From: Bispira polyomma
Taxonomy: Eukaryota
Reading direction: 5' to 3'
Length of the DNA: 64,000 bases
Assembly: GCA_965649765.1 (NCBI GenBank)
Contig: OZ287754.1
Span: 37,510,001-37,574,000, forward strand
Below the pieces are notes generated by a model. That model saw only the letters and a list, made by a program, of their open reading frames with translations, was not told where the DNA came from and did not search any database. The translations under genes were made by a program, and so were the position numbers. Positions 1,804-64,000 of this stretch are shown here, piece after piece. The stretch's first letter is position 1; every line of letters begins with the position of its first letter.

Positions 1804-4800
1804 CCTTTTGAATATCTTCAGTTAATTAACTGTGTATTTGTTGTAAGTGTAAGGTTTGTGAATCTTTTACAATCAAATACCACACATTGTTACTGATATA
1901 TTCAACATATGATATCCTTGGTAAATAAAGTAGTTTAAACAATGGTCAAACCATGTAATCTCTTTTTGAGGGTAAAGTATAAGATGATAAATAAAAAATC
2001 AACACGTTATACCAGGGGGTCATATCCACACGACTAGTTTATTTCTCCTTGTAGCAAACATAACTTTTAAGATATTTTAATATAACTAAGATGACGTCAC
2101 TGTATTGCTACTTTACCATATCCCATTCCAATCATCCACTAAAGAAGTGGCTATCATTGTCACTAAGACTTCCCACACCTTCAATTGTCACACAAAGAGT
2201 TAATTGTACTTGAATAAGACTACATTATAGGAACATGTGCAGAGTTCTAGTTCTCTGTTAAAATAGACAGAGGAAAAGGAAGGGAGACTATTTGTGGAGT
2301 CTATTAGGAGGGCCTGGAAATAATCATATATCTCCTATAAATATCATTAAAATTCCCATGAGAGAAGCCTATATCTATGCAGAACAATGGACGTACATCA
2401 TCAGTGTTTTTAATACCAATAAAGGGTGGTATAATCATGAAAATGGGAACAACAGAGTGGCCTGGCCTTTCTACTGGATTGATGGCTGTGGTGGCATCAA
2501 AACGTGCAAAACTGGACCACTGGAGATAAAATGTAATATGGTTATGGAAATGGGTGGAAAGCAGGTTTGTCTTCTGGCCATGACCTTTATGACTGAGTGA
2601 GTGATTTTTAACCATTATAACTAAGGCTGCCACGATATACTGATGTATCAATATATCCCGATACAGTTTCTAAAGGCAATATATTGCGATACAAAATTTT
2701 AAAGCAAGTATGTATCAATACAGTATTTCACCATAAATCTTTTAATATCGCTTACTTCCGGGTCGCGTTTTAGACAAAACCTTGCCTAGTGTGTAAATTA
2801 AATATATTCTAGTGAGATAGGAAGTTTTGAAAGCTGAGTACCCAACCAAAACGCCCCAAATATGATGACAACGACAAGCGATTTGCAAGCCGCATGTGTC
2901 AAATAAAATATATTCTACACCGACTCTGGGATGTATACGAAATATGATGTCATCAATACAACACAAAAATGGCAATAAGTAAATATTTCTAAAAATTTAA
3001 ATAGAAATGGGGTATATATTTAACATAATAATCCTAACTTTATATTTAAAAGTAAAGTACACCTTACTCCATACATTAATCCCAATCGCAATATATCGCA
3101 AAACGTATCGTGAATACAATCTGCGTATTGCAATATATCGCAATACGATTTTCTGATCCAATACACTTCCGGCCAAAGAAACAACACCAAACCCTACTAC
3201 ATGAGGGAACCGGTTGGTTATGATCCCCTGAACCCAGAGCTAAGGGCTAGATTTTAAATCTAGAAGCATGCTTCCAATTACTAGGCCACTGTATCCTATA
3301 ATCTGACAGACAGTTTGTGATAGACACGATTTAGACCTACAGAAGGGTAATGACAAAACGAAGACCAGCGCATTTAGTTACCTTTAAGAACCCAGATATT
3401 TCAAGCAAGAGAAATCAGGCAATCTAAATAAAAGAAAGATATTTAACAGGAACTTAAACTTTTTTCTTAGAAATAAATCTAGTTGTTTGATGTATCATGA
3501 GCTATATCTCTATACTACTTTAACCTTTGTGGCAGGCTATTATAGCTCTTCCAACTGTGTGTCATTTATACATATACCAGACCCAAATTCTATAAGATTG
3601 GTATTCTTAAAGTGATTTGATCACAAACACTCTTCAAACAGAGAGACTGGATGTGTTGTATTTTTCCCATCAGTAGTTTGAGTGACAAGGGGCAAACACT
3701 CCCCGCCCCCCCTCTTACCTTATCAACACAACCCACACCACACTCTGGATACTGCTATACAAACAACCACAAGGTCACTGATTGTAACACACTGCCTCAC
3801 ACACATAGACCCTTCTAACCTCGGCTAAAGAGCCCATAGAAGTTAAGAGTTTAATCAGCCAATGTGTGTCCTTTGAGCACACAAATACACACAATTCTGC
3901 TCATCTAGAGTTATTGCAAATCCATTTATTTTCTTCAAGTTGAGTGACACAGGTGACTTTGAAGTTAGTGTTTTAATTAACTCTGTCTACTGGCTAGGTC
4001 TTTATGGTATTTAGACTATGTTGTGGTAACAACAGTGACTTTAACAGGTTACAATTTAGAAGTTACATTCATACTTTTTTTCTCTTTTTAGTTTAACATG
4101 TCTTTCAGCAACTGCAAGTTACATTGCAATGGACAGTGTATTTTTGGAAGAAAGTAAACAAGGAAGGTTTCTTGTACTGTAAACTAACCATCTTCAGCAA
4201 GTATACTGCCAAATTGCGTACATACATGCCATGCCTGAGAACCAAAGGCAGACTTGAGTGTTGGCATTAGCAGTGTTACCTCCACACGACCGAGGTCCCA
4301 TGATCATACTGATACAAATTAAGTCATTCAAAGTTCACACAGAGATAAGCTAGCATATTATTATAATATGTAGATCAGTCCTATGGTAATTTTGATCTTT
4401 ACTTCTTCTTAATTAGTTTTTCATTGATTTACTTAAAATTTTTAACTCTAAACCTGATGAAAATGTTGATTTTTGACATCCTATTTTAGAATTATGCAAC
4501 TTCAAAAGAAGTTCTGTTACAGTAGATTTAATCCGCATTGATTGTGTAATGTTATGACTAAACGGGTCAATTTCTCCTTTACAAAACCAATTTCCGTGTT
4601 TTACTTGAAACCTTACTTAATTTAACACTGAATGGAGTATTTTTTCAATTTTTTTTTTACTAGAATTAAAACTGAAAAAAATAGCTAAAAATTGTGCAAC
4701 TGTTTTGTCTGAAGATATATATTGATGTCTTCTCAAATATATATTCTCAAAAGGCAATTCCTGTGACTTGAAAACAATGATGTAGACCAAAGCAACAATG

Positions 4801-48429: not shown

Positions 48430-49734
48430 CAGAGCTCTTCATACGTGCAAAGTTAGTTTAACATTGGAAATGTTGATATTTTAATTTTTAATTGTATTCT
48501 TAGCAGTATTACAATAATATCTTGTGATAAATCAATTTTAACAAATAATAAGTCACATTAAGAGTTATGTGTGAAACATTTGCCATGTTGTTTTTGTAAT
48601 TGTAGAATTTGATATGGCACATTAAGATGGAACTGAAAATTATCAATAGATTATTGGATGTATTTGGGAGAGTTGGAGAATTCTAGTTACTGAAATGTCA
48701 AATTTACCGAATAAAACTACCTAAGCTTTGCATTTTGTTTTATTTATAAATCACAAATGTGAATTTTTATATTAGGATGTAATTGTACTTAGTTTCCCAA
48801 TTTCTTTAAAAATACTGGTATTCACCATAATATGTCTTTGTTTGAATGTAGCATCCCCAATTTCAACATTCCACCTTAGTGTTCTTCAGTGGATCTTGTT
48901 CATTTATTACATCTTGATTTAAATTAATAGTATGTCTATATTGAATTCATCTATCATGAATGAGTTGAGGTTTAAAACTACAACGAAATAATAATACTAT
49001 ATAAATGCATTATGATGTGGATACATGACTTCTAAGTATAAAGACCTTCTGATGATAGATATTCTACACATCACAGGCAACCCACAGCATTTCATTTGAC
49101 AAGGTGCAGTACTTAAGGAAATAAAAAAACTGTTTTGTGCTGCCCATCAAAGTGCTGTTCTTTGTCTACATTACAGAGTGGTTAAGCTACTGTTGTGTTA
49201 AAGATATTTATTATTTACCTATGCCAGGAGGTCTACGATTTTACCCGTGTTGGTTGGTTTGTTTGTTGGCGTGTTTGTTAGCAGGATTATACCAAAACTA
49301 CTACACCGATTATTACCAAATAAAATACATAATTAATACTAATAAAATAATAAACCAGACAAATAGAAAATCACAACCAAAGCTAAACTGGTAAAAATTA
49401 TTTTAACAATGTTATTATATTTTGCAATAAACTTATCTTCTGCAATTCTAAATCTAGTGACGACATTTGCACCTCACAATCATACACAAAATCAGGCCTC
49501 AGATGTGCTGTAGATTTTACCCTGGTTGACCTACGAGGGACAGCAACTGGTGAGATAGAGACTAAACTCTGATCTGAGACTTACTACGACTATTGTCACC
49601 CAATGAAGACAACTGATTTTGATCATTCTTACTTGATAATGCCGATTAGGGGTGGAGAGATATAGATAGGCCAATAAAAAACAGCATTATATTTTAATTA
49701 GTACACATACCACCAGCAAAGCTATGCAGGACAA

Positions 49735-49957
49735 TGCATAGCATGACCCAACAGGGGTCTGCTACTTCAGTTCTACCACAGAAAATTTATATGACTACCT
49801 TAACCCCTAGAGATTGATTCTATCACTACAAATTATTCACCCAACCGTGAATAACATACTCTAGCCAATCAGAAGCTCTCCCTCTTAAAGTGGCCACGTT
49901 TTCTGTAGAGATCTTCCATTTTGGAACCAGATTCAGCAGTATTAACACGGACATTTT
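49735..49957 (+). repeat. Split direct repeat A1 (223 bp)
   Basis: Matches 55370-55592 with 2 substitutions by eye; contains AGCCAATCAG (CCAAT box). Confidence 0.95.
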
Positions 49958-50078
49958 ACAGCCAAGTTTATGAAGGCTCTGCTGAATCTACATTTTAGTA
50001 TTTTAGTTTTTATCTTTTAAGTTTGTTTTTAAGTATATACTACTTCTTTTACGTGTTATTATATCCATTTGTGTTATT

Positions 50079-51225
50079 ATGGGAAGGACGGCTGAACGTC
50101 AGTGCAAACACCCCAAGAAAACTCCTGCAACGGAGGGTAGAAAACCTGCAAGAAAGAGCACAGTAAAAAAGGCAAGAGTTGGTAAGAACACTCGCATAGA
50201 TGATAGTATTATTACAGACCCCAGTGGTCTGTTTGACCAGGTAGAATCCATTCACTCGTCTCCACCTACCCGCTTACCACAGTCGAGTCAGGCCGAGTTA
50301 TCCTGCCGAGACTCTGAGATGTTGTCAATATTAAAACGATTAGAAGAATCAAACGCATTATTAACACAAAGGTTAGATCGCGTAGAGGCCAGGGACTCCA
50401 GCATCCAGACAGCGTCTCCGTGCTTACACCCGCCTCGCCTTGGTTCACAGGCCGTGTCAGCAAGTAACACCACAGTTCAACCGAGTCTGGCAGCAGCCAC
50501 CTCACTCACACGTTCAGACTACTCAACGGACGCCATTGTACCGAAGATAGATGTCTTGAAAGCCCTGCCGGATGTCCAGGCGATGGTCAACGAAAGACTG
50601 GCAGAATATAATCTCCAAGCTCAGGCTGCGTTTACACAAGGTAAGGCTGCTCTTAGACAGAAGTCGGGAAGGTTTAACACGACGGACATACCTACTAGCA
50701 ACCCAAAAATAAGATGGGCAAACGAGGGCTGGACGGGCAGCTCTGCGCGCAAACGATTACCGTATGACGACTTATCCCTCCCACAGTGGGCATCTGGCCA
50801 GTTGGCCAATGCTCTACAGGTCACAGACCCGACTGTTTCCAGAGAAATCATTCAACAGGTGGTTTTGTCATTGAAGGACGCCGCCACACTACCATGGGAA
50901 GTCGTTCGAACGGCTTGGGCACTAAACATGACAGAAGTCGAAGAGGGTAGACTGTCCTGGGGTGACACGACGCAGTGGGCCCTTAATCGCCTTAGTGCTT
51001 CACAGCTGGCTATGGTGAATTCGAAAGCCAACCACGGTTCGTCTACTCATTTGTAAATTATATAATTCTGGAAAATGTGTACACAAAGCCGATCACAACC
51101 AATATAAGCACGTATGCTGGTACTGCGCCACAGTACTCCACAAAGACGTTTACCACCCGGAGTTCAAGTGTTATAAGTCCAACTCAGCTAAGCAAGCAGA
51201 GTCAGGATCACTTTCCAACCAATAG
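50079..51225 (+). CDS. Retrotransposon gag-like ORF1 (frameshift between 51019 and 51054)
   Basis: 325-aa ORF 50079-51056; the Cys/His knuckle CKLYNSGKC...HVCWYC...HPEFKC continues in the +1 frame to TAG at 51223-51225. Confidence 0.85.
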
Positions 51226-51333
51226 GACATCGACCAACTGCCAGTTCAAGGTACATTTCGTCAGAACAGTGAAAACAAAGTAAAATGTAAAAATCTTAGA
51301 AATCAAAGTAATACAGGTGTAACTACACCGAGT

Positions 51334-54186
51334 TTGAATGGTAGTGCGTTAAATTTATTTAAGAAGATTAAAAATGGTAATGTATTCTGTCAAGAAAGCA
51401 TGAGAAAAATTAAAGATAGTAATTCTAGAAATCAAAGTCACACAGATGTGAACATGTCAAATTTGGGTAATACTAACTTTAAGTCAAGAACAAACTTTGC
51501 AGATGTAAGGTTAGCAGAAACCAGAAATTCGGGCATATGTAAACCCCTCCTTTCTACTTGTCATGACAAGCAGTATGATAGTCATGAACTGAATGGGGTT
51601 ACAAAGGGTAACACTCAGCAATGTATTCAGGGAACCCAAAGTACACTGGCCTCGAGTACCAGTGATACTTTATACTCTCATAAACAAAGCAAACTTTCGG
51701 AATATATTCAATGTTTGGAATGTATGGACTATGGTGATATTGATAATACAAGAGCCATTCTAAATTATGAGAATGTTAATTCTCTTAAAGGCAATCACAT
51801 TGCTGGATGTTTACAAACGGGTAAGAAAATGGACTGTTATGAAAAAGTACAGACTGTAATTAAAAATAATGATATGTATGGTACCCCAGACGGGTCTATG
51901 GTGGAAGTCATCATTTCGACTACTAATTGGTTGTACTATATCCCGAATCTAACATGGGAATTGCCTGTGGTATTTGTTCAGTGTAAGTTAACACACCATT
52001 CCGGGTTTTATGTATTGTGGGATGGGGAACTTGAGCAAACATTGTATAATTGTGGGGACCCACCAGCAGGTGCAATGTTGGTGACCGATACAGTCACTAC
52101 TGTTATACCTTTGGCAAGTATGAGAGATGAGGTTCTCAACACCAACATAATTGAACCCATTACTACCATAAGCAAATTGGGAGCTAAACATGCATGGCAG
52201 GATTTCCAAAAAGATATATGTTACAAAGAGAGATGTGATGTTGACTATACAAAGTATATGACTAACATAATTGATATGTTATTAGATATTAATGTAAATA
52301 AAACATGTTCAGTCAGTAATGACAGACCAATAGACTTGGCAGTTAAACCCTGCCACAAAGGTAAGACCGCATCGCCCAATTGCTTCTTCAAAACTTATGA
52401 AAATTTGTCAGATGACACCATTTGTGCTACCATACCAGATAGAGACATAAATTTTCCTAACAAAACTAGAGGTTTTTTGGCAACTTCCGATACTAAATTT
52501 GAATTTATAGGACCTGATAGAGCACCCACACACATCACATCTATTGAACAAATGATCAAAGTAGCAGACATTATTAGGGACACGGGATGTCCCAACTATA
52601 AAGGGGCTAGAATTCCCCTCACATCAGGCTTAAATATTAAGGCATGGGAAGAAGCCCTTTATGATTACCCTGATCAATTGTTGCTTCAATATGTAAAATT
52701 TGGTTTTCCATTATCTTTAACAAATTCAGAAAATTTAAAAATAAAAGACACAACTAATCATCATTCTGCACTGCAATACAAGCAGCACATCCAACAATAT
52801 CTTGATAAGGAAAAACAATACGGGGCAATGTTGGGCCCTAGTTCAGAAATTGACAATGATTCATTTCACTGTTCTCCACTGCTCACCAGACCTAAAGACA
52901 ATTTTAAGCGACGTGTTATTTTGAACCTTTCTCACCCTAAAGGCAATTCGCTCAACGACAATGTCAACAGACACCAATTTGATGGAGTAAATTTTATATT
53001 AAAATTTCCGACTATAGACGGCATAGTTGACCAAATTCGTAGAACTGCCACTCCTAGGATCTTCAAACTGGACGTGGCTCGTGCATTCAGGAACCTGAGG
53101 GTGGACCCAGTCGACGCCATGAAACTAGGCATAAAATTCGATAACAGGAAGTACGTTGATCCAGCGGTCGCGTTCGGCTGGGTCCACGGCTCGGCGGCCT
53201 TCCAGCGTTGTTCTGACGTCATAGCACATATAATGAATAAAAATAGCCATAGCGTGTTCTGTTATATCGACGATTACGTCGGTATCTCCCCAGAAGATAA
53301 GGCCCATGAAGCCTTTAGTCAGCTATACGAACTGGTTACAAAACTCGGTTTTCCACTCAATCTAGACAAAATTTCTAAACCAAGCACTAGAATAACCTGT
53401 CTTGGCATAGATATCGATATCCAGGAGGGCACGATTAGTATTACACAAGAGGACACCCACATGTTATGTCGCGAAGTAATGGATAAGGCTTGGATTTCTA
53501 GGACAAAATTTCAATCAGTTTTGGGAAAACTGCTTTATATCCATAAGTGCGTTAAGCCAGCACGTATATTTATAAACAGACTGTTGATGGCGTTTCGAAG
53601 CAACAGCCAGGCCAAAAGATTTAAAATTTCAGAACAAATTAAAGCTGACTTAACCTGGTTTGAAAAATTTTTGCCACGTTATAATGGCATCACTTTCATT
53701 AATCCTATTGTTAGCAAGCACGAAGACGAAGTATTCATTGACGCTTGTTTAACCGGATTGGGGGCTATCCACGCAGAAGAAGTGTACGCCACTCCCTTAT
53801 ATAATATCTATGGAAGGAAACTCTCCATAGTACACATAGAAATGCTAAATATCTTACTTGCCTTAAGGGTCTGGGGTGAGCAGTGGACTCATAGACGCAT
53901 AATTATGCATTGTGACAACATGGCCGTTGTCCTGGTAGTTAGGTCAAACAAGACAAAAGACGAATTATTGGCCTTATGCCATAGGAATATTTGGCTGATT
54001 TCAGCCACATACGACATTACAATAGAAATACAGCATGTAAGGGGCAAAGAAAATACCATTGCTGATTTGTTTTCTAGATTATTTTCTGACCAGCCTCCTC
54101 ACAGGGGGCAAGTGGACATATTAAAACACTCTTGTAGGTGGCATACTATCCCTATTCAGTATTTTAACCTAGATTTAAATATCTGA
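51334..54186 (+). CDS. Retrotransposon pol: reverse transcriptase + RNase H
   Basis: RT motifs KLDVARAFR, FGWVHGSAAF, YIDD; RNase H residues IDAC, HIEM, CDNM, ADLFSR. The frame is open from 51226. Confidence 0.95.
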   Translation: MNGSALNLFKKIKNGNVFCQESMRKIKDSNSRNQSHTDVNMSNLGNTNFKSRTNFADVRLAETRNSGICKPLLSTCHDKQYDSHELNGVTKGNTQQCIQGTQSTLASSTSDTLYSHKQSKLSEYIQCLECMDYGDIDNTRAILNYENVNSLKGNHIAGCLQTGKKMDCYEKVQTVIKNNDMYGTPDGSMVEVIISTTNWLYYIPNLTWELPVVFVQCKLTHHSGFYVLWDGELEQTLYNCGDPPAGAMLVTDTVTTVIPLASMRDEVLNTNIIEPITTISKLGAKHAWQDFQKDICYKERCDVDYTKYMTNIIDMLLDINVNKTCSVSNDRPIDLAVKPCHKGKTASPNCFFKTYENLSDDTICATIPDRDINFPNKTRGFLATSDTKFEFIGPDRAPTHITSIEQMIKVADIIRDTGCPNYKGARIPLTSGLNIKAWEEALYDYPDQLLLQYVKFGFPLSLTNSENLKIKDTTNHHSALQYKQHIQQYLDKEKQYGAMLGPSSEIDNDSFHCSPLLTRPKDNFKRRVILNLSHPKGNSLNDNVNRHQFDGVNFILKFPTIDGIVDQIRRTATPRIFKLDVARAFRNLRVDPVDAMKLGIKFDNRKYVDPAVAFGWVHGSAAFQRCSDVIAHIMNKNSHSVFCYIDDYVGISPEDKAHEAFSQLYELVTKLGFPLNLDKISKPSTRITCLGIDIDIQEGTISITQEDTHMLCREVMDKAWISRTKFQSVLGKLLYIHKCVKPARIFINRLLMAFRSNSQAKRFKISEQIKADLTWFEKFLPRYNGITFINPIVSKHEDEVFIDACLTGLGAIHAEEVYATPLYNIYGRKLSIVHIEMLNILLALRVWGEQWTHRRIIMHCDNMAVVLVVRSNKTKDELLALCHRNIWLISATYDITIEIQHVRGKENTIADLFSRLFSDQPPHRGQVDILKHSCRWHTIPIQYFNLDLNI

Positions 54187-54192
54187 TTTCAG

Positions 54193-55170
54193 GGTCAAAC
54201 CACATCACACAGAGATTTACAGACTCAGCTTGGCAGAGGATCAACTGTGCCTTACGACCAAAGACCACCCAGACTTACAACAATCAATTCAAAACATTTA
54301 TTTCCTTTGTTTGCTATGCTGGCCTAACAGACATTACTACACACTCAGTCATAGCATTTTTGGAATACTTAGTACAAACAGGAGCTTCTCCACACATGAT
54401 TAATAACTACCTCTCTGCAATCAAATACATGGCCAAAAAAGCTATATTAGGACATAAAAATCTTTGAGAACAACACGGTCTCCATGTTCACCAGAAGCCT
54501 CACACATACGTCACTATTTAGGCCCTCACCTAAGGGAATTTTTCAGATTGAACACCTTTCATTAATCTCCAGGGCATGTGACATCCTTAGTGATCCACCT
54601 TTGTACAGGGCAATATTTATGTTGGCTTTTTTCGGGTTCCTCAGGATTTCTAATATAGTCCCACATTCCAGATCAAAGTTTGATCCCACCCGTCATTTTC
54701 TCAGGAAAGATATAATATTTGGTAATCCAGGGGCACATTTGATTCTCAAATGGGCAAAGAACCTTCAAATTAGATCACAAGTTCACATCATACAGATACC
54801 ACTACTGGAGAATAAAACCTTATGTCTTGTTACAGCTTTGCAAGTATTGCTGACCTCTAGACCACTTTCCACACATTCACCATTGTTTGTCAGTGCAACA
54901 TTCCCACATCACCCAATTGTGGAAACACATGTGCGTTCTGCACTTGCTTCAGTACTTACACATGTGGGGATTCCCACAAAATCACATAGCTTCCACACAT
55001 TCAGAAGGTCAGGGGTTACATATGCCTTCAATAATAACGTTTCACTCCAGAACATAATGGCACATGGCCTTTGGAGGTCATCTGCAGTTTGGTCATATCT
55101 TCACCAGAATTCCCAGGCTGCCTCTGCTGTCCCTCTCACCTTTGCCTCTTCCATACCTAAACTTTCTTAG
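54193..55170 (+). CDS. Retrotransposon tyrosine recombinase (frameshift near 54435-54465)
   Basis: Catalytic domain 54484-55170: GFLRISN (R), WAKN (K), HTFRRSG (HxxR), HGLW, WSYL (Y). The N-terminal core-binding domain (ALRPKTTQTYNNQFKTF...FLEYL...NYLSAIK) lies at 54195-54467 in another frame. Confidence 0.9.
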
Positions 55171-55177
55171 TTTGGCT

Positions 55178-55592
55178 TGGGTGTTTTTAAAATTACTCTG
55201 CATTTTAAACCATTATGATGTTTTACCCCTACCTGTAGATATACTGAACTAACATGTACAGATTTAAATAAATTCCTCAAACCATGGTTTTACTGTCTTC
55301 AACATATAACCACACAAAATTGCTATCCGACCTTCAATACCGACCTTCCATTTTCACTCAGTAGAACTGTGCATAGCATGACCCAACAGGGGTCTGCTAC
55401 TTCAGTTCTACCACAGAAAATTTATATGACTACCTTAACCCCTAGGGATTGATTCTATCACTACAAATTATTCACCCAACCGTGAATAACATACTCTAGC
55501 CAATCAGAAGCTCTCCCTCTTAAAGTGGCCACGTTTTCTGTAGAGATCTTCCATTTTGGAACCAGATTCAGCAGTATTAACACAGACATTTT
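55178..55592 (+). repeat. Internal B1-A2 junction of the split direct repeats
   Basis: B1 55178-55369 directly abuts A2 55370-55592 (AGAACTG|TGCATAG); B contains AATAAA at 55267. Confidence 0.95.
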
Positions 55593-56205
55593 CCCCCCAC
55601 CTCCCCTTACCACAGCACAAGATATTATGAAGGTTCTTTTCAAAAATTTTCTCCCATTTCACTTATGGCCAATTTGTGGTCCTAAACACTTATCTATACT
55701 GCTAGCTTATGGCATGTAAGCACATACCGAGTTTAGATGGTTACTTGATTACGGACCCACTGCGCCCTGCTGAGATTATTAGAAAAACTCTTGATTCGTT
55801 TGGATTATGAGAGTTTTTGAACTCGGAACTGTGTGGTGTTAGATCCTTCTTCATAACCTACCCTCTGGTGTGGGCTACCAGGGGGGCAATGCTCTGTGAG
55901 GAAGGATGTCTCACTGCTAGGCGAGTCGGTGTCACAAGTTCCGGGTTCCTAAAAATTCATATAGGCCTTTGGCGCAGGTTCATGTACTTATATTTATGAA
56001 ATTTTAATATTTTGTGAATGGTAAAAGATTAATGTGTAATTGTTATGTATTGGCTTAGGGGGCCGTTAATAATTACTAGCAGGTGTCATTTAGGCGAATG
56101 CTAGCTCTCAGATGTTGAATTTCAACTTGCTCTGCTGTTTCGAGGCTTATATCCTCTTATATTGTTGCTGTACTGGCGGTTTTGTTTGTACTGTTGTACT
56201 ACGTA

Positions 56206-56397
56206 TGGGTGTTTTTAAAATTACTCTGCATTTTAAACCATTATGATATTTTACCCCTACCTGTAGATATACTGAACTAACATGTACAGATTTAAATAAA
56301 TTCCTCAAACCATGGTTTTACTGTCTTCAACATATAACCACACAAAACTGCTATCCGACCTTCAATACTGACCTTCCATTTTCACTCAGTAGAACTG
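56206..56397 (+). repeat. Split direct repeat B2 (192 bp)
   Basis: Matches 55178-55369 with 3 substitutions by eye. Confidence 0.95.
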
Positions 56398-57116: not shown

Positions 57117-57790
57117 ATGAATAATGGAGATCGATCGTTTTCATCCAACCTGCGGATAAACAAAAGGCTGGACAAGGTAAAAAAAGCAACAGCTACTAAT
57201 TACACTCCAGTGGCGTCACCTATTATCGCTGTATGCAACGGTACACCATTCGGAACAAGGGCTAACGATGGCTATCACATGCAATCACCACTTAGAATGA
57301 ACTCAATTCCTCAGCGACGCGATATGGGATGGGATGTCCACCTCTGTCCAACCCTATTAGGCGGGAGCAGCAAGAGTACAGTAGGGACAGAATCGTGCCC
57401 AGTCTTGAAGCTTTACGTTCAATGCCAAACATACAGTGCTGTAAACAGACAATTAGCTGATTATGAAGCGGGGGTGCAACACAAACTAAACCAAGGTAAG
57501 CCCAATACACGTCAACTTTACGGCAGGTTCTATAATACATATAATGTCACTTCCGCTGACCCCAGATTAAGGTGGCGATGTGTTTCCGCACGTAATAAAC
57601 CAGCTTTCGATGACTTTTATCACTGTGGGCTGTTGGGCAGCTTTCTAATACCCTATTGGCGTCTCAAGTTCCAAACATGCATGACATGATACAGCAGGTC
57701 ATACTCTCGTTATGTGAAGCCTGATCACTTCCTTGGTAGGTGGTCTGTATAGCATGGTCTGTCAGCATGCACAAGCGATAGAGGAAAGAC
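57117..57790 (+). pseudogene. Decayed gag of a related YR retrotransposon
   Basis: IVPSLEALRSMP / AVNRQLADYEAGVQHKLNQGKPNTRQLYGRF / DPRLRW / WAVGQLSN / IQQVILSL / SLPW*VV align with ORF1 IVPKIDVLKALP / MVNERLAEY...QGK...SGRF / NPKIRW / WASGQLAN / IQQVVLSL / TLPWEVV; stops and frameshifts present. Confidence 0.85.
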
Positions 57791-58149: not shown

Positions 58150-59020
58150 AAGAGTATAATCTAATCAAAATCAATTTCGTAATGGCACTTAATCTCCTTA
58201 ATACTTGTCTAGGGGCCAAAAAAACAGAATCGTTATTCATTATTTGTGTTGTGGTGGACGAAAAAGGGGTCGTTACCAGGGAGGGAGTCGGTAATGGTAA
58301 AACCATGACAGGAGGGATAAGCTTTTTGATAGACAGGTCTTGCCTAAAAAAGTTGAAAGAGAAGGTGAGCATCTAATATCTTGCGGTAGGTGATTCCATA
58401 GCTTAGGTGCAGCGTATGAGAAACTACGATTGAAATGGACTTTTGAACTGTGTATGCTGCGATCAAAGGTAGGAACATTGAGAAATAATTTGTTAAGATT
58501 TCCGCGATGGGTTTTGGCTTGCTGAGAGTAATTGGTGGGATTTGGGCTGAGATATTTTGGGAGACCTGTATTGAGAGACGTATAGACCAATGGTGCAGTT
58601 TTGAACATACATCGAAATTTAACAGGAAGCCAGTGTAAATATTTTAGAACAGGAGATATGTGGGAAAACTGAGGTATTAGTGATAATACGAGCTAGAGTA
58701 TTCTGTATTGCCTGAAGGCTTAGCAATGAATTAAAATAGTCAATAGAACTGCTTACAAGTGCATTAGCCAACAACATAGCTGTATCCAGCAACAAATAGT
58801 GTTTCACTGACCAAACAGAATTTACAGACAGAAGTGACGTGTTTGCTGAAAAATGAAAAAATCAGTGTTAAACATTACTCCAAGATTAAGTTAAACCTTT
58901 TACGGTGATATCATATTCCCAAGGATGTTTATTGGAGAGTAACCTGCATACTAGTGCCAAAAAAAATATATATTCTGTTTTGTCAGGATTAAACTTGAGC
59001 TTATTTGATAACATCCATTC
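58150..59020 (-). mobile_element. L2/CR1-clade LINE 3' fragment
   Basis: ORF2 C-terminal motifs LANALVSSSIDYFNSLL, HWLP, FSYAAPKLWNHLPQDIR; (TTAGA)-like tail near 58156-58175. Confidence 0.85.
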
Positions 59021-61230: not shown

Positions 61231-62704
61231 GTAAGATATTTAAGTTATTTCTGTGTAAGTCTGTATACATTATTTTTGGTAAGAAACCTCCAGCGTGATC
61301 ATTAGCTTGGCACAGGGATGTTGTATGACTGACGGGTCCAAGATTAACCATTTAGGTGTGTAGATTTATGGATAATATTCATGCAATATATATCTTGTTT
61401 TACCGTTATTAATGTTATATTTGCCTTATATTTGTGGTTTATATATATTTGTCTGAAATAAGGTACACGGATAGAAGTTTATTTCATAATAGATAAGTAA
61501 AACCTCTTTGTGACCTGCTTTTTTGAAGGCTGTTCTTGCTATTATCCATTAGGCTGTGAAATACAATGTTTTGATGAGCAATACGGAGCGGGAGATATAA
61601 AGTGTTTTACTATCCACTGTGACGTGAGAATGACGTTTTCGTGGCTAATACAGGCCGGATGGTAAAATGAACCGTGTCACCCGGCGCCCGTAAATGTGTA
61701 TATAAAAACTGCAGTAGTTACAGAAATTCGCACTGTTTTTAATGTCATTTTTACTGAATATTTCAGATAGTAAATTGATAAATAGTGTGATTAACATATA
61801 AACAACATAATGGTACATTTAAGTGCTATGTACATACGAGTTGAAAGGCAATTCTTTAGGAGACCAACTCTGTACTTTTTGGCTTTCAGATTTGCATTGT
61901 GTCGTCATAATGAAAGGTTTTGAAACTTAAACAAGAATATATACAGTTTTGGGTTGTTTAATATTGTCTTAGTAAAAAAATAATCTATCAATTGCTTAAA
62001 ACTTTCGATATATTTTACATAAGCAATGTTATTGTCAAAAAAACCTAATTTTTAGAGTAGTAAAAGTTTTAATTTGAAGCTAATTCTATAAGGTAACAAG
62101 TCAGTACTTTTTGTCTATTTTGCCCTGAATTTTCAATATTTTAGACCCTTTTCAGACTGTTTTTGTTATATTTTGAACTATATTAATTAATATAACGATA
62201 TTATATCAGTTAATAATAAAAGTAAAATGACACTTGTATATTAAAAAATTATATGACTTAAGTAGATAAAATGCACAATACTCGCCCTGTGGGGCTTGTA
62301 TCGTACTTTTTATATTCTTTCGTCATATAATTTTTTCATATACACCACTCGGGTAATTTTTCTAATGAACTGTATCACCCGTCCCAATGAATGTGTATAT
62401 AAAAACTGCAGTAGTTAAAGGAATTTCAATGTCATTTTTATTGAATATTTCAGATAGTAAATTGATAAATAGTGTTTAACATAAAATATAAACCTTAGAC
62501 AACATAATTATATAATAAACTGGATTTTTAATACTTTCTAAATACAAATTTGAAGTTAATTCTTACAGGTAATAACTCTGTACTTCTTGGCTTTTAGATT
62601 TGCATTGTGACGTTATAATAGAACGTAAACAAACAACATATACGGTTTGGGGTTGTTTTAATATGGTCAAAACAAACAAAGTTATCTATAAATTCTTTAA
62701 AACT

Positions 62705-62707
<3 letters not shown>

Positions 62708-62786
<79 letters not shown>
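62708..62786. repeat. (TA)n microsatellite
   Basis: Direct reading. Confidence 0.98.
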
Positions 62787-62789
<3 letters not shown>

Positions 62790-64000
62790 GGCTCTTGTTA
62801 TATTTATAAATATAAAATATAAGCAATATGCTATGTTATTTTGCACAAAACGTGATTTTTAAATTGATGGAAGTTTGTATTTGAAGCTAATTCTTTGAGG
62901 TCACATCTTAGTACTTTTTAGTTGTATTATGTAATTTGTCGTGAATTTTTAATGTTTTCGGACTCTTTCTGACTGTTTTGTGTTATATTTAACCTATATA
63001 AGCATAATAATTATATTTTATCAGTGGATAATAAATGTAAAACAACCCTTGTGTGCATTAAGAAGATAAAACGCACAATACTCGCGCTACCGTGCTCGTA
63101 TTGTACTAATCATCTTCTTTCGTCATATATTTTTTTATTATACAACACTCGGGTAGTTTTACTATTGTATCACCCAGTGCCCGAAACTATATTATATAAA
63201 ATGTAATATTTACTGATATTACCAAGTTTTTAAAAAAAATTTTTTTTACTATATTAATATAAACACTAGTAAAAATTACATCAAATAGAAACCTTAAGCA
63301 ATACTAGGCTACAATACTAAAATTGTGTTTTAAGGTACCTTGTTTTAGATGTTTTATTTTATATATTGTGTAAATTTAGCAGAATATCTGTTTTAAAAAA
63401 ATGAGTAAATTCAATATTAAAACCTTGAAAAGTGACGCAAATCCTGTCATTTTAAATCTATTTTCATAGGCAACGTGTGTTAACTACCTCAGAGTGGAGG
63501 ATGATACATAGTGTAGTGTGAAATTTCTTGAAATCCCTGGAAATTTTAGTTATTTCGTGAATTGCCTAATTGAATCAGAGATTTCACGAAATTACTACAA
63601 AAAATCACGAAATTCCTGATTGCATTATTTGACTGTAACATATATACTGTATACACAACATTTGCATTAGTTTTTGTAATAAAGCTTGAAATAAAGTCAA
63701 CAATAAAATTAAAACAACCCTTGTGGTGTGCATATTGAAAAAGTACATGACTCAAGGAGATAAAATGCACCTTACTCGCCCTACCAGGCTGGTATTGTAC
63801 TGTTTATCTTCTTTTGTCATATAATTTTGTACTAGATACACCACTTACTTTTGTCAGACCCAGGTCCTATGTGTTCTTAATTGAGCATTTAACTCAGAAA
63901 CATTTTTTTGTTTTTCTTGTGCATTTTGTGCACATTATCTAATCAGTTTAGCACTGTCTTTTTTATTGATGACAAAGTACATATACAAAATAAAATACAT

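Follow-up and report, generated by a model that had tools for sequence, protein, structure and literature searches.

The locus described here raises the question of how a retrotransposon makes its tyrosine recombinase (YR) when no start codon precedes the DNA-binding domain in the open reading frame (ORF) of this enzyme. The element is Ngaro-like by its architecture and lies in a 64,000-nt window of the Bispira polyomma assembly GCA_965649765.1 (contig OZ287754.1, 37,510,001–37,574,000, forward strand); its positions are given as window positions, as in an earlier note on this DNA. That note had proposed that the recombinase is produced by splicing from within gag to the start of the YR frame, with all of pol skipped. 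Our analysis indicates that the YR is probably made from such a spliced mRNA (50640/50641 to 54192/54193), as a fusion of the N-terminal part of Gag to the recombinase. The ORFs and the predicted splicing signals are as follows:

50079–51225, forward strand: gag ORF, beginning with the ATG at 50079; frame broken near 51030–51056 in this copy
51226–54186, forward strand: pol ORF, with a variable N-terminal part, reverse transcriptase (RT), as well as RNase H; stop codon TGA at 54184–54186
54193–55170, forward strand: YR, with a SAM-like and a catalytic domain (Pfam PF02899 and PF00589); frameshifted near 54435–54460
50079–50640, forward strand: predicted first coding exon, 562 nt (187 codons plus 1 nt)
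50638–50646, forward strand: predicted splice donor AAG/GTAAGG, phase 1 (CAAG/GTAAGG at 50640/50641)
50641–54192, forward strand: predicted intron of the YR mRNA, 3552 nt, comprising the C-terminal half of gag and the entire pol, as deduced from donor, acceptor, and frame
54164–54168, forward strand: branch-like TTAAC, 25 nt before the acceptor AG; its TAA closes the YR frame
54187–54193, forward strand: predicted acceptor TTTCAG/G, phase 1 in the YR frame; the AG ends at 54192, 21 codons before the R-P motif

Predicted splice sites in the element

The TAA at 54165–54167, which closes the YR frame, can be read directly in the sequence, and the first in-frame ATG of the open frame is codon 77 (54396), inside the Pfam SAM-like domain. 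The gag donor and the YR acceptor are both in phase 1 and therefore join in frame, after 187 gag codons. The earlier note had given the closed frame, the missing ATG, the donor, the acceptor directly after the pol stop, and the branch-like motif upstream of it; all of these were found where it had placed them. It had also reported that the donor is kept in a diverged second gag, and profile matches identify the latter as a real, decayed homologue:

57144–57775, forward strand: second gag, decayed but from the same family; it carries the donor AAG/GTAAGC at 57495/57496

Splice sites were scored with a heuristic matrix built on metazoan frequencies, and all ranks given here refer to this matrix. 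The donor at 50640/50641 ranked first among the 287 GTs of the element, and that of the second gag (CAAG/GTAAGC) first among 56. The window as a whole contains 15 instances of the motif MAGGTRAG, against 7.1 expected, so that a single consensus donor is by itself not rare.

This copy is dead and could not make an intact YR, as both gag and YR carry frameshifts; given the YR frameshift near 54435–54460, its spliced frame would end at the stop at 54462. Three contig runs from one study contained a diverse, multi-copy family, with an indel at the position of the YR break in other copies. The joint 50640^54193 was absent from the 15 of 95 joints listed in these runs, which are not on record as RNA.

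An intact relative without pol/YR overlap

A metagenome scan yielded 13 loci, one of which (L002) retains three intact ORFs and was found after the splice had been predicted. Its identity to the element is 25% in gag, 31% in the N-terminal part of the YR, and 40% in pol. The YR frame of L002 opens 306 nt past the pol stop, behind several stop codons. Within this non-coding spacer, a pyrimidine tract is followed by the putative acceptor TTTGTAG/G (ending at L002 position 3951), which is in phase 1 and stands 21 codons before the R-P motif, i.e., at the codon identical to that of the acceptor in our element. It ranked third of 261 AGs.

The best of the 54 GTs in the gag of L002 is the putative donor CAAG/GTAATT at 510/511, which again has phase 1 and is situated within the same linker of gag. 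The longest DNA run that is invariant among the three gags, i.e., those of the element, the second gag, and L002, is CAAGGTAA, and it is located at the donor.

These findings, together with the protein signatures described below, strengthen the splice proposed in the earlier note, in that an acceptor occurs at the predicted codon in a relative whose YR does not overlap pol; the proposal stays at the level of sequence. A further strong acceptor-like site of L002 at position 1271 is situated in the N-terminal part of pol and is in phase 0.

Frameshifting at the end of pol as an alternative

In a review (Poulter and Butler, 2015, cited after a passage of PMC13003380), the Ngaro YR has been described as overlapping the RT/RNase H frame in the −1 frame and as probably expressed via frameshifting, and excerpts of PMC3783388 describe fungal Ngaro YRs as either in frame or frameshifted. 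A −1 ribosomal frameshift at the end of pol, resulting in a Pol–YR fusion, would use the following site:

54174–54180, forward strand: slippery heptamer T TTA AAT within the pol/YR overlap, not conserved

In this copy, the YR does lie in the −1 frame of pol, and the overlap of 16 nt holds this in-frame XXXYYYZ heptamer. The earlier note had named a YR ORF overlapping pol in intact copies as a finding that would speak against splicing; an overlap of this kind is present in our copy and absent from L002, where a −1 shift cannot reach the YR because its frame opens 306 nt downstream and behind stops.

The pol relatives (P0231–P0349) end in F-x-L-[DN]-[LFY]-x-[IL]-stop, with a constant spacing to the last RNase H motif, and in the element these conserved codons overlap the predicted branch point. 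Consistent with frameshifting, the position of the pol stop is tightly kept (72 of 119 relatives share the same motif-to-stop distance), and among the 84 of 119 relatives with an intact-type end, a heptamer would be possible within the last six codons in 29, more than the approximately 16% calculated from a per-position background of 4.3%. At the codons used in the element, however, it would be possible in 4 of the 84, which corresponds to the background. Moreover, no stable structure was found downstream of the heptamer (z −1.08, −0.65, and +0.46), seven such in-frame heptamers occur in the pol of this element, and in the more distant loci L005, L006, L009, and L010 the YR overlaps pol by approximately 150 nt, yet without an in-frame heptamer. 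The conservation of acceptor position and phase in L002 favours splicing over a frameshift, which we consider improbable for this element. While the YR of Ngaro-like elements has been described as a probable −1 frameshift product, the evidence here points to a splice from within gag.

Signatures in related proteins

Of 67 gag relatives, 61 cover the donor site, and these carry PGK (31), QGK (27), QGR (1), AGK (1), or QSK (1) at this position. The relatives are redundant, fall into 14 clusters, and are not independent. The exchange of Q, P, and A before a nearly fixed G-K would be explained by a phase-1 donor, which allows such an exchange.

For the YR, the 150 best representatives were considered. 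Thirty-seven of them could be anchored at the domain start, and 15 reach at least 22 residues upstream; one was removed as an RNase H–YR fusion, leaving 14 sequences with pairwise identities of 26–54%. When read through, a phase-1 YAG/G gives the dipeptide [SPTALIV]-G. This dipeptide was present at −22 to −18 in 9 of the 14 relatives (null 0.076, P 1e-7) and at −22 to −20 in 6 (null 0.047, P 2e-5). Residues preceding it were enriched in F and Y (13/53 vs. 3/72, counted before removal of the fusion), as would be expected since a translated pyrimidine tract would read so.

Only one protein was found among YR relatives of 420–2000 residues, namely an RT–YR fusion without Gag. Searches of viral and prokaryotic contigs with the gag, YR, and pol queries returned no relative. 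The donor-plus-motif pattern retrieved 19 viral loci, but no match to the profiles of gag, YR, or pol was obtained with any of them or with L001.

Distant clade

The loci L004–L014 have an RT that is about 27% identical, and L005, L006, L009, and L010 form a separate clade in a tree of unnamed relatives. In the clade of our element, represented by the element and L002, gag forms a single ORF, after whose stop pol continues in frame; in the distant loci, phase-1 acceptor-like sites were seen where the Gag C-domain begins (L006 4774, L007 913, and L008 908), at the pol start (L004/L006/L009 5914, L005 5727, and L010 58), and at the YR start (L005 7356, L009 7520, and L010 1660). The first phase-1 AG after the stop closing the YR frame follows at 22–25 nt in L005, L009, and L010, at 25 nt in the element, and at 28 nt in L002; the spacing of 22–28 nt and the lack of an ATG before the domain are common to all five loci (5/5). 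In the decayed copies L004–L010, the position of the donor could not be fixed.

Tentatively, splicing rather than frameshifting may be the general route to the YR in Ngaro-type elements, with a phase-1 donor where the N-terminal Gag module ends and an acceptor of the same phase ahead of the YR, and in L004–L010 with further acceptors before the Gag C-domain and pol, though we hold this wider reading to be somewhat less probable than its opposite. If it is true, the apparent overlap of pol and YR would merely be the interval from the branch point to the pol stop, and all proteins encoded downstream would be fused to one N-terminal targeting module of Gag.

Weighing of splicing and its alternatives

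Several observations weigh against the predicted splice. The acceptor of the element is weak (rank 34 of 367 AGs). L002 is the single intact relative compared at the DNA level (n = 1), and besides the predicted acceptor it has another one of phase 1 at 3777, in the pol–YR spacer, which is stronger and leads into a dead-end frame of 26 codons. Protein alignment places the G-K of the family on G146-K147 of L002, eight codons past the donor and without a GT; homology of the L002 donor, ambiguous at the protein level, rests on DNA alignment and phase. The window of −22 to −18 in the YR relatives was picked after the data had been seen. No Gag–YR fusion occurs among 349 protein relatives (0/349), and the gene calls behind these appear not to be splice-aware. 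In L005, L009, and L010, finally, the YR acceptors sit within conserved pol codons. Further such observations are better discussed with the explanations that they favour.

The acceptor may be real and yet be joined to another donor or to a non-coding leader, or the YR may be transcribed from an internal promoter and translated from an ATG or near-cognate start further downstream; the product would be a free YR instead of a Gag fusion. The spacer of 300 nt in L002 and an in-frame ATG just past its R-P motif (codon 37) would suit this explanation, as would CTG and TTG codons just upstream of the acceptor in both the element and L002 and the alternative donors found with the matrix (52361 in the element, 579 in L002). 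In addition, 22 of the 37 anchored YR calls have a called start, ATG or otherwise, 5–19 residues before R-P, i.e., shortly before the domain. These called starts are, however, spread over 15 positions, and the first ATG of the element is deep in the binding domain. Conservation of the acceptor phase is required only when an upstream coding exon is joined, and the top donor of each of the three gags has phase 1 and falls within the same linker. We therefore judge a free YR to be unlikely, albeit the most credible of the alternatives.

The splice-like sites could also be by-products of protein constraint, i.e., of Q/P-G-K in Gag, a hydrophobic pol C-terminus, and a glycine at the YR start, with no splicing at all. 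The G-K of L002 without a GT indicates that protein constraint, too, may preserve this dipeptide, consensus donors are common, and the weak acceptor of the element would fit as well. On the other hand, the pyrimidine tract and AG of L002 are in a non-coding spacer, and GGT accounts for only 24/60 and 27/75 glycine codons, but all three donors have it. This explanation also leaves the YR without a route to translation, and we regard it as highly unlikely. For the preferred reading, a splice from gag to YR, we infer that the spliceosome uses both sites and that the gag donor is the partner of this acceptor.

Gag structure and proposed mechanism

Gag consists of a basic tail, a long helix (71–108), a helix pair (157–186), a linker, a helical domain, and a Cys/His tail. 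In the AlphaFold model (mean predicted local distance difference test score, pLDDT, of 59.6), helix 164–186 ends at the donor codon and is followed by a low-confidence linker (188–223). The donor thus falls at a predicted Gag domain boundary; with the donor at the helix end, the junction would keep whole units, namely the basic tail, the 38-residue helix, and the helix pair. A fold search with the Gag model gave nothing at E ≤ 0.001, and the atlas search provided only leads below 0.9.

In the proposed mechanism, the spliced mRNA would encode the fusion of the Gag N-terminus to the YR, with all of pol skipped. More speculatively, the efficiency of splicing may set the YR level and the YR may be tethered to the Gag N-terminus, as suggested in the earlier note; among the data, it is the position of the donor at the predicted domain boundary that bears on this. 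The fused half of Gag, with its basic tail and long helix, might carry the YR into the particle or the nucleus, and the unspliced RNA might serve for Gag, for Pol, and as the genome. Pol starts in frame straight after the gag stop, both in the element (51223–51228, TAG) and in L002 (1122–1127, TGA), and no phase-1 acceptor of note was found for pol in either of them. The shared frame of gag and pol and the lack of a fitting acceptor suggest stop-codon readthrough as a candidate route for Pol expression in both.

Pol residues ~1–400 (51226–52500) are Asn/Cys-rich, highly variable among relatives, and without a Pfam match.

Element architecture and neighbourhood

The gag, RT/RNase H, and YR ORFs have the same orientation, and pol matches the Pfam RT and RNase H-like families. 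Split direct repeats flank the coding region, with A1 at the 5' end and B1-A2...B2 downstream of the YR:

49728–49964, forward strand: repeat A1, left end of the element, 97% identical to A2 (55363–55599)
55178–55362, forward strand: repeat B1, 98% identical to B2 (56206–56397)
55363–55599, forward strand: repeat A2, adjoining B1
56206–56397, forward strand: repeat B2, right end of the element, about 600 nt past A2

The gap between A2 and B2 (55600–56205) is filled by about 600 nt of unique sequence, a point of difference from the Ngaro-like elements. No Pfam match to a methyltransferase domain was found in the element, and pol stops 40 residues past the last RNase H motif. Same-strand gag, RT/RNase H, and YR, split direct repeats, and the lack of a methyltransferase are given as characteristics of Ngaro elements in passages of PMC13465315, PMC4157794, and PMC3783388. 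By ORF layout, repeats, and domain content, the element is Ngaro-like, as it combines direct repeats and three ORFs with the absence of a methyltransferase, and it shares with Ngaro-like elements (order DIRS) the split repeats located after the YR.

Two other groups of YR retrotransposons were considered and rejected. PAT-like elements resemble it in the split direct repeats and in the Cys/His motif at the end of Gag, but carry a methyltransferase after RNase H, which is lacking here. DIRS1-like elements have inverted terminal repeats and an internal complementary region, whereas the terminal repeats of this element are direct and no inverted pair at its ends is among the repeats listed.

In the remainder of the window, a frame of 139 codons on the reverse strand (58273–58692) resembles, by its motif, the C-terminal end of a long interspersed nuclear element (LINE) reverse transcriptase. 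Several diverged copies of an AT-rich unit of ~700–800 nt, whose inverted arms enclose a (TA)n tract, occupy 61690–63860 and are possibly a miniature inverted-repeat transposable element (MITE) or a satellite.

Comparison with known systems

A spliced YR mRNA was not reported in the searched portions of the Ngaro/DIRS literature, which includes PMC7192593, PMC6681497, PMC9341512, PMC4157794, PMC13003380, PMC9210276, PMC8547959, PMC3783388, PMC3266345, PMC2632668, PMC12477816, and PMC13465315, with the original Ngaro papers, Repbase notes, and supplements outside this scope. The standing guess for the Ngaro YR without a start codon is frameshifting, and with a splice between defined sites this question can be put to a test. 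If the splice is real, a fusion of the Gag N-terminus to the YR exists that ORF-based annotation misses, and a retroelement retains, through the packaging of unspliced RNA, an intron that covers the greater part of its genome.

Spliced subgenomic mRNAs are used for env in retroviruses and gypsy, for pol in foamy viruses, and for gag in copia. The likeness to the proposed mechanism is that one transcript serves as the genome and its spliced form expresses another gene; to our knowledge, these cases concern other genes and elements, and none involves a tyrosine recombinase.

The closest working analogue is P50 of murine leukemia virus (MLV). In the SD' RNA of this virus, splicing connects a donor within gag with an acceptor in the late part of pol, by which the N-terminus of Gag is fused in frame to integrase (described in sections of PMC10496198). 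The gag donor, the late acceptor, and the in-frame fusion to the Gag N-terminus would all have their counterparts in our element. P50 comprises the last 116 integrase residues and is accessory, whereas in our element the splice would be needed for the recombinase as a whole, and enzyme and element class are unrelated. If the predicted splice is true, the strategy of MLV P50 is paralleled in an unrelated element, with the entire integration enzyme dependent on it.

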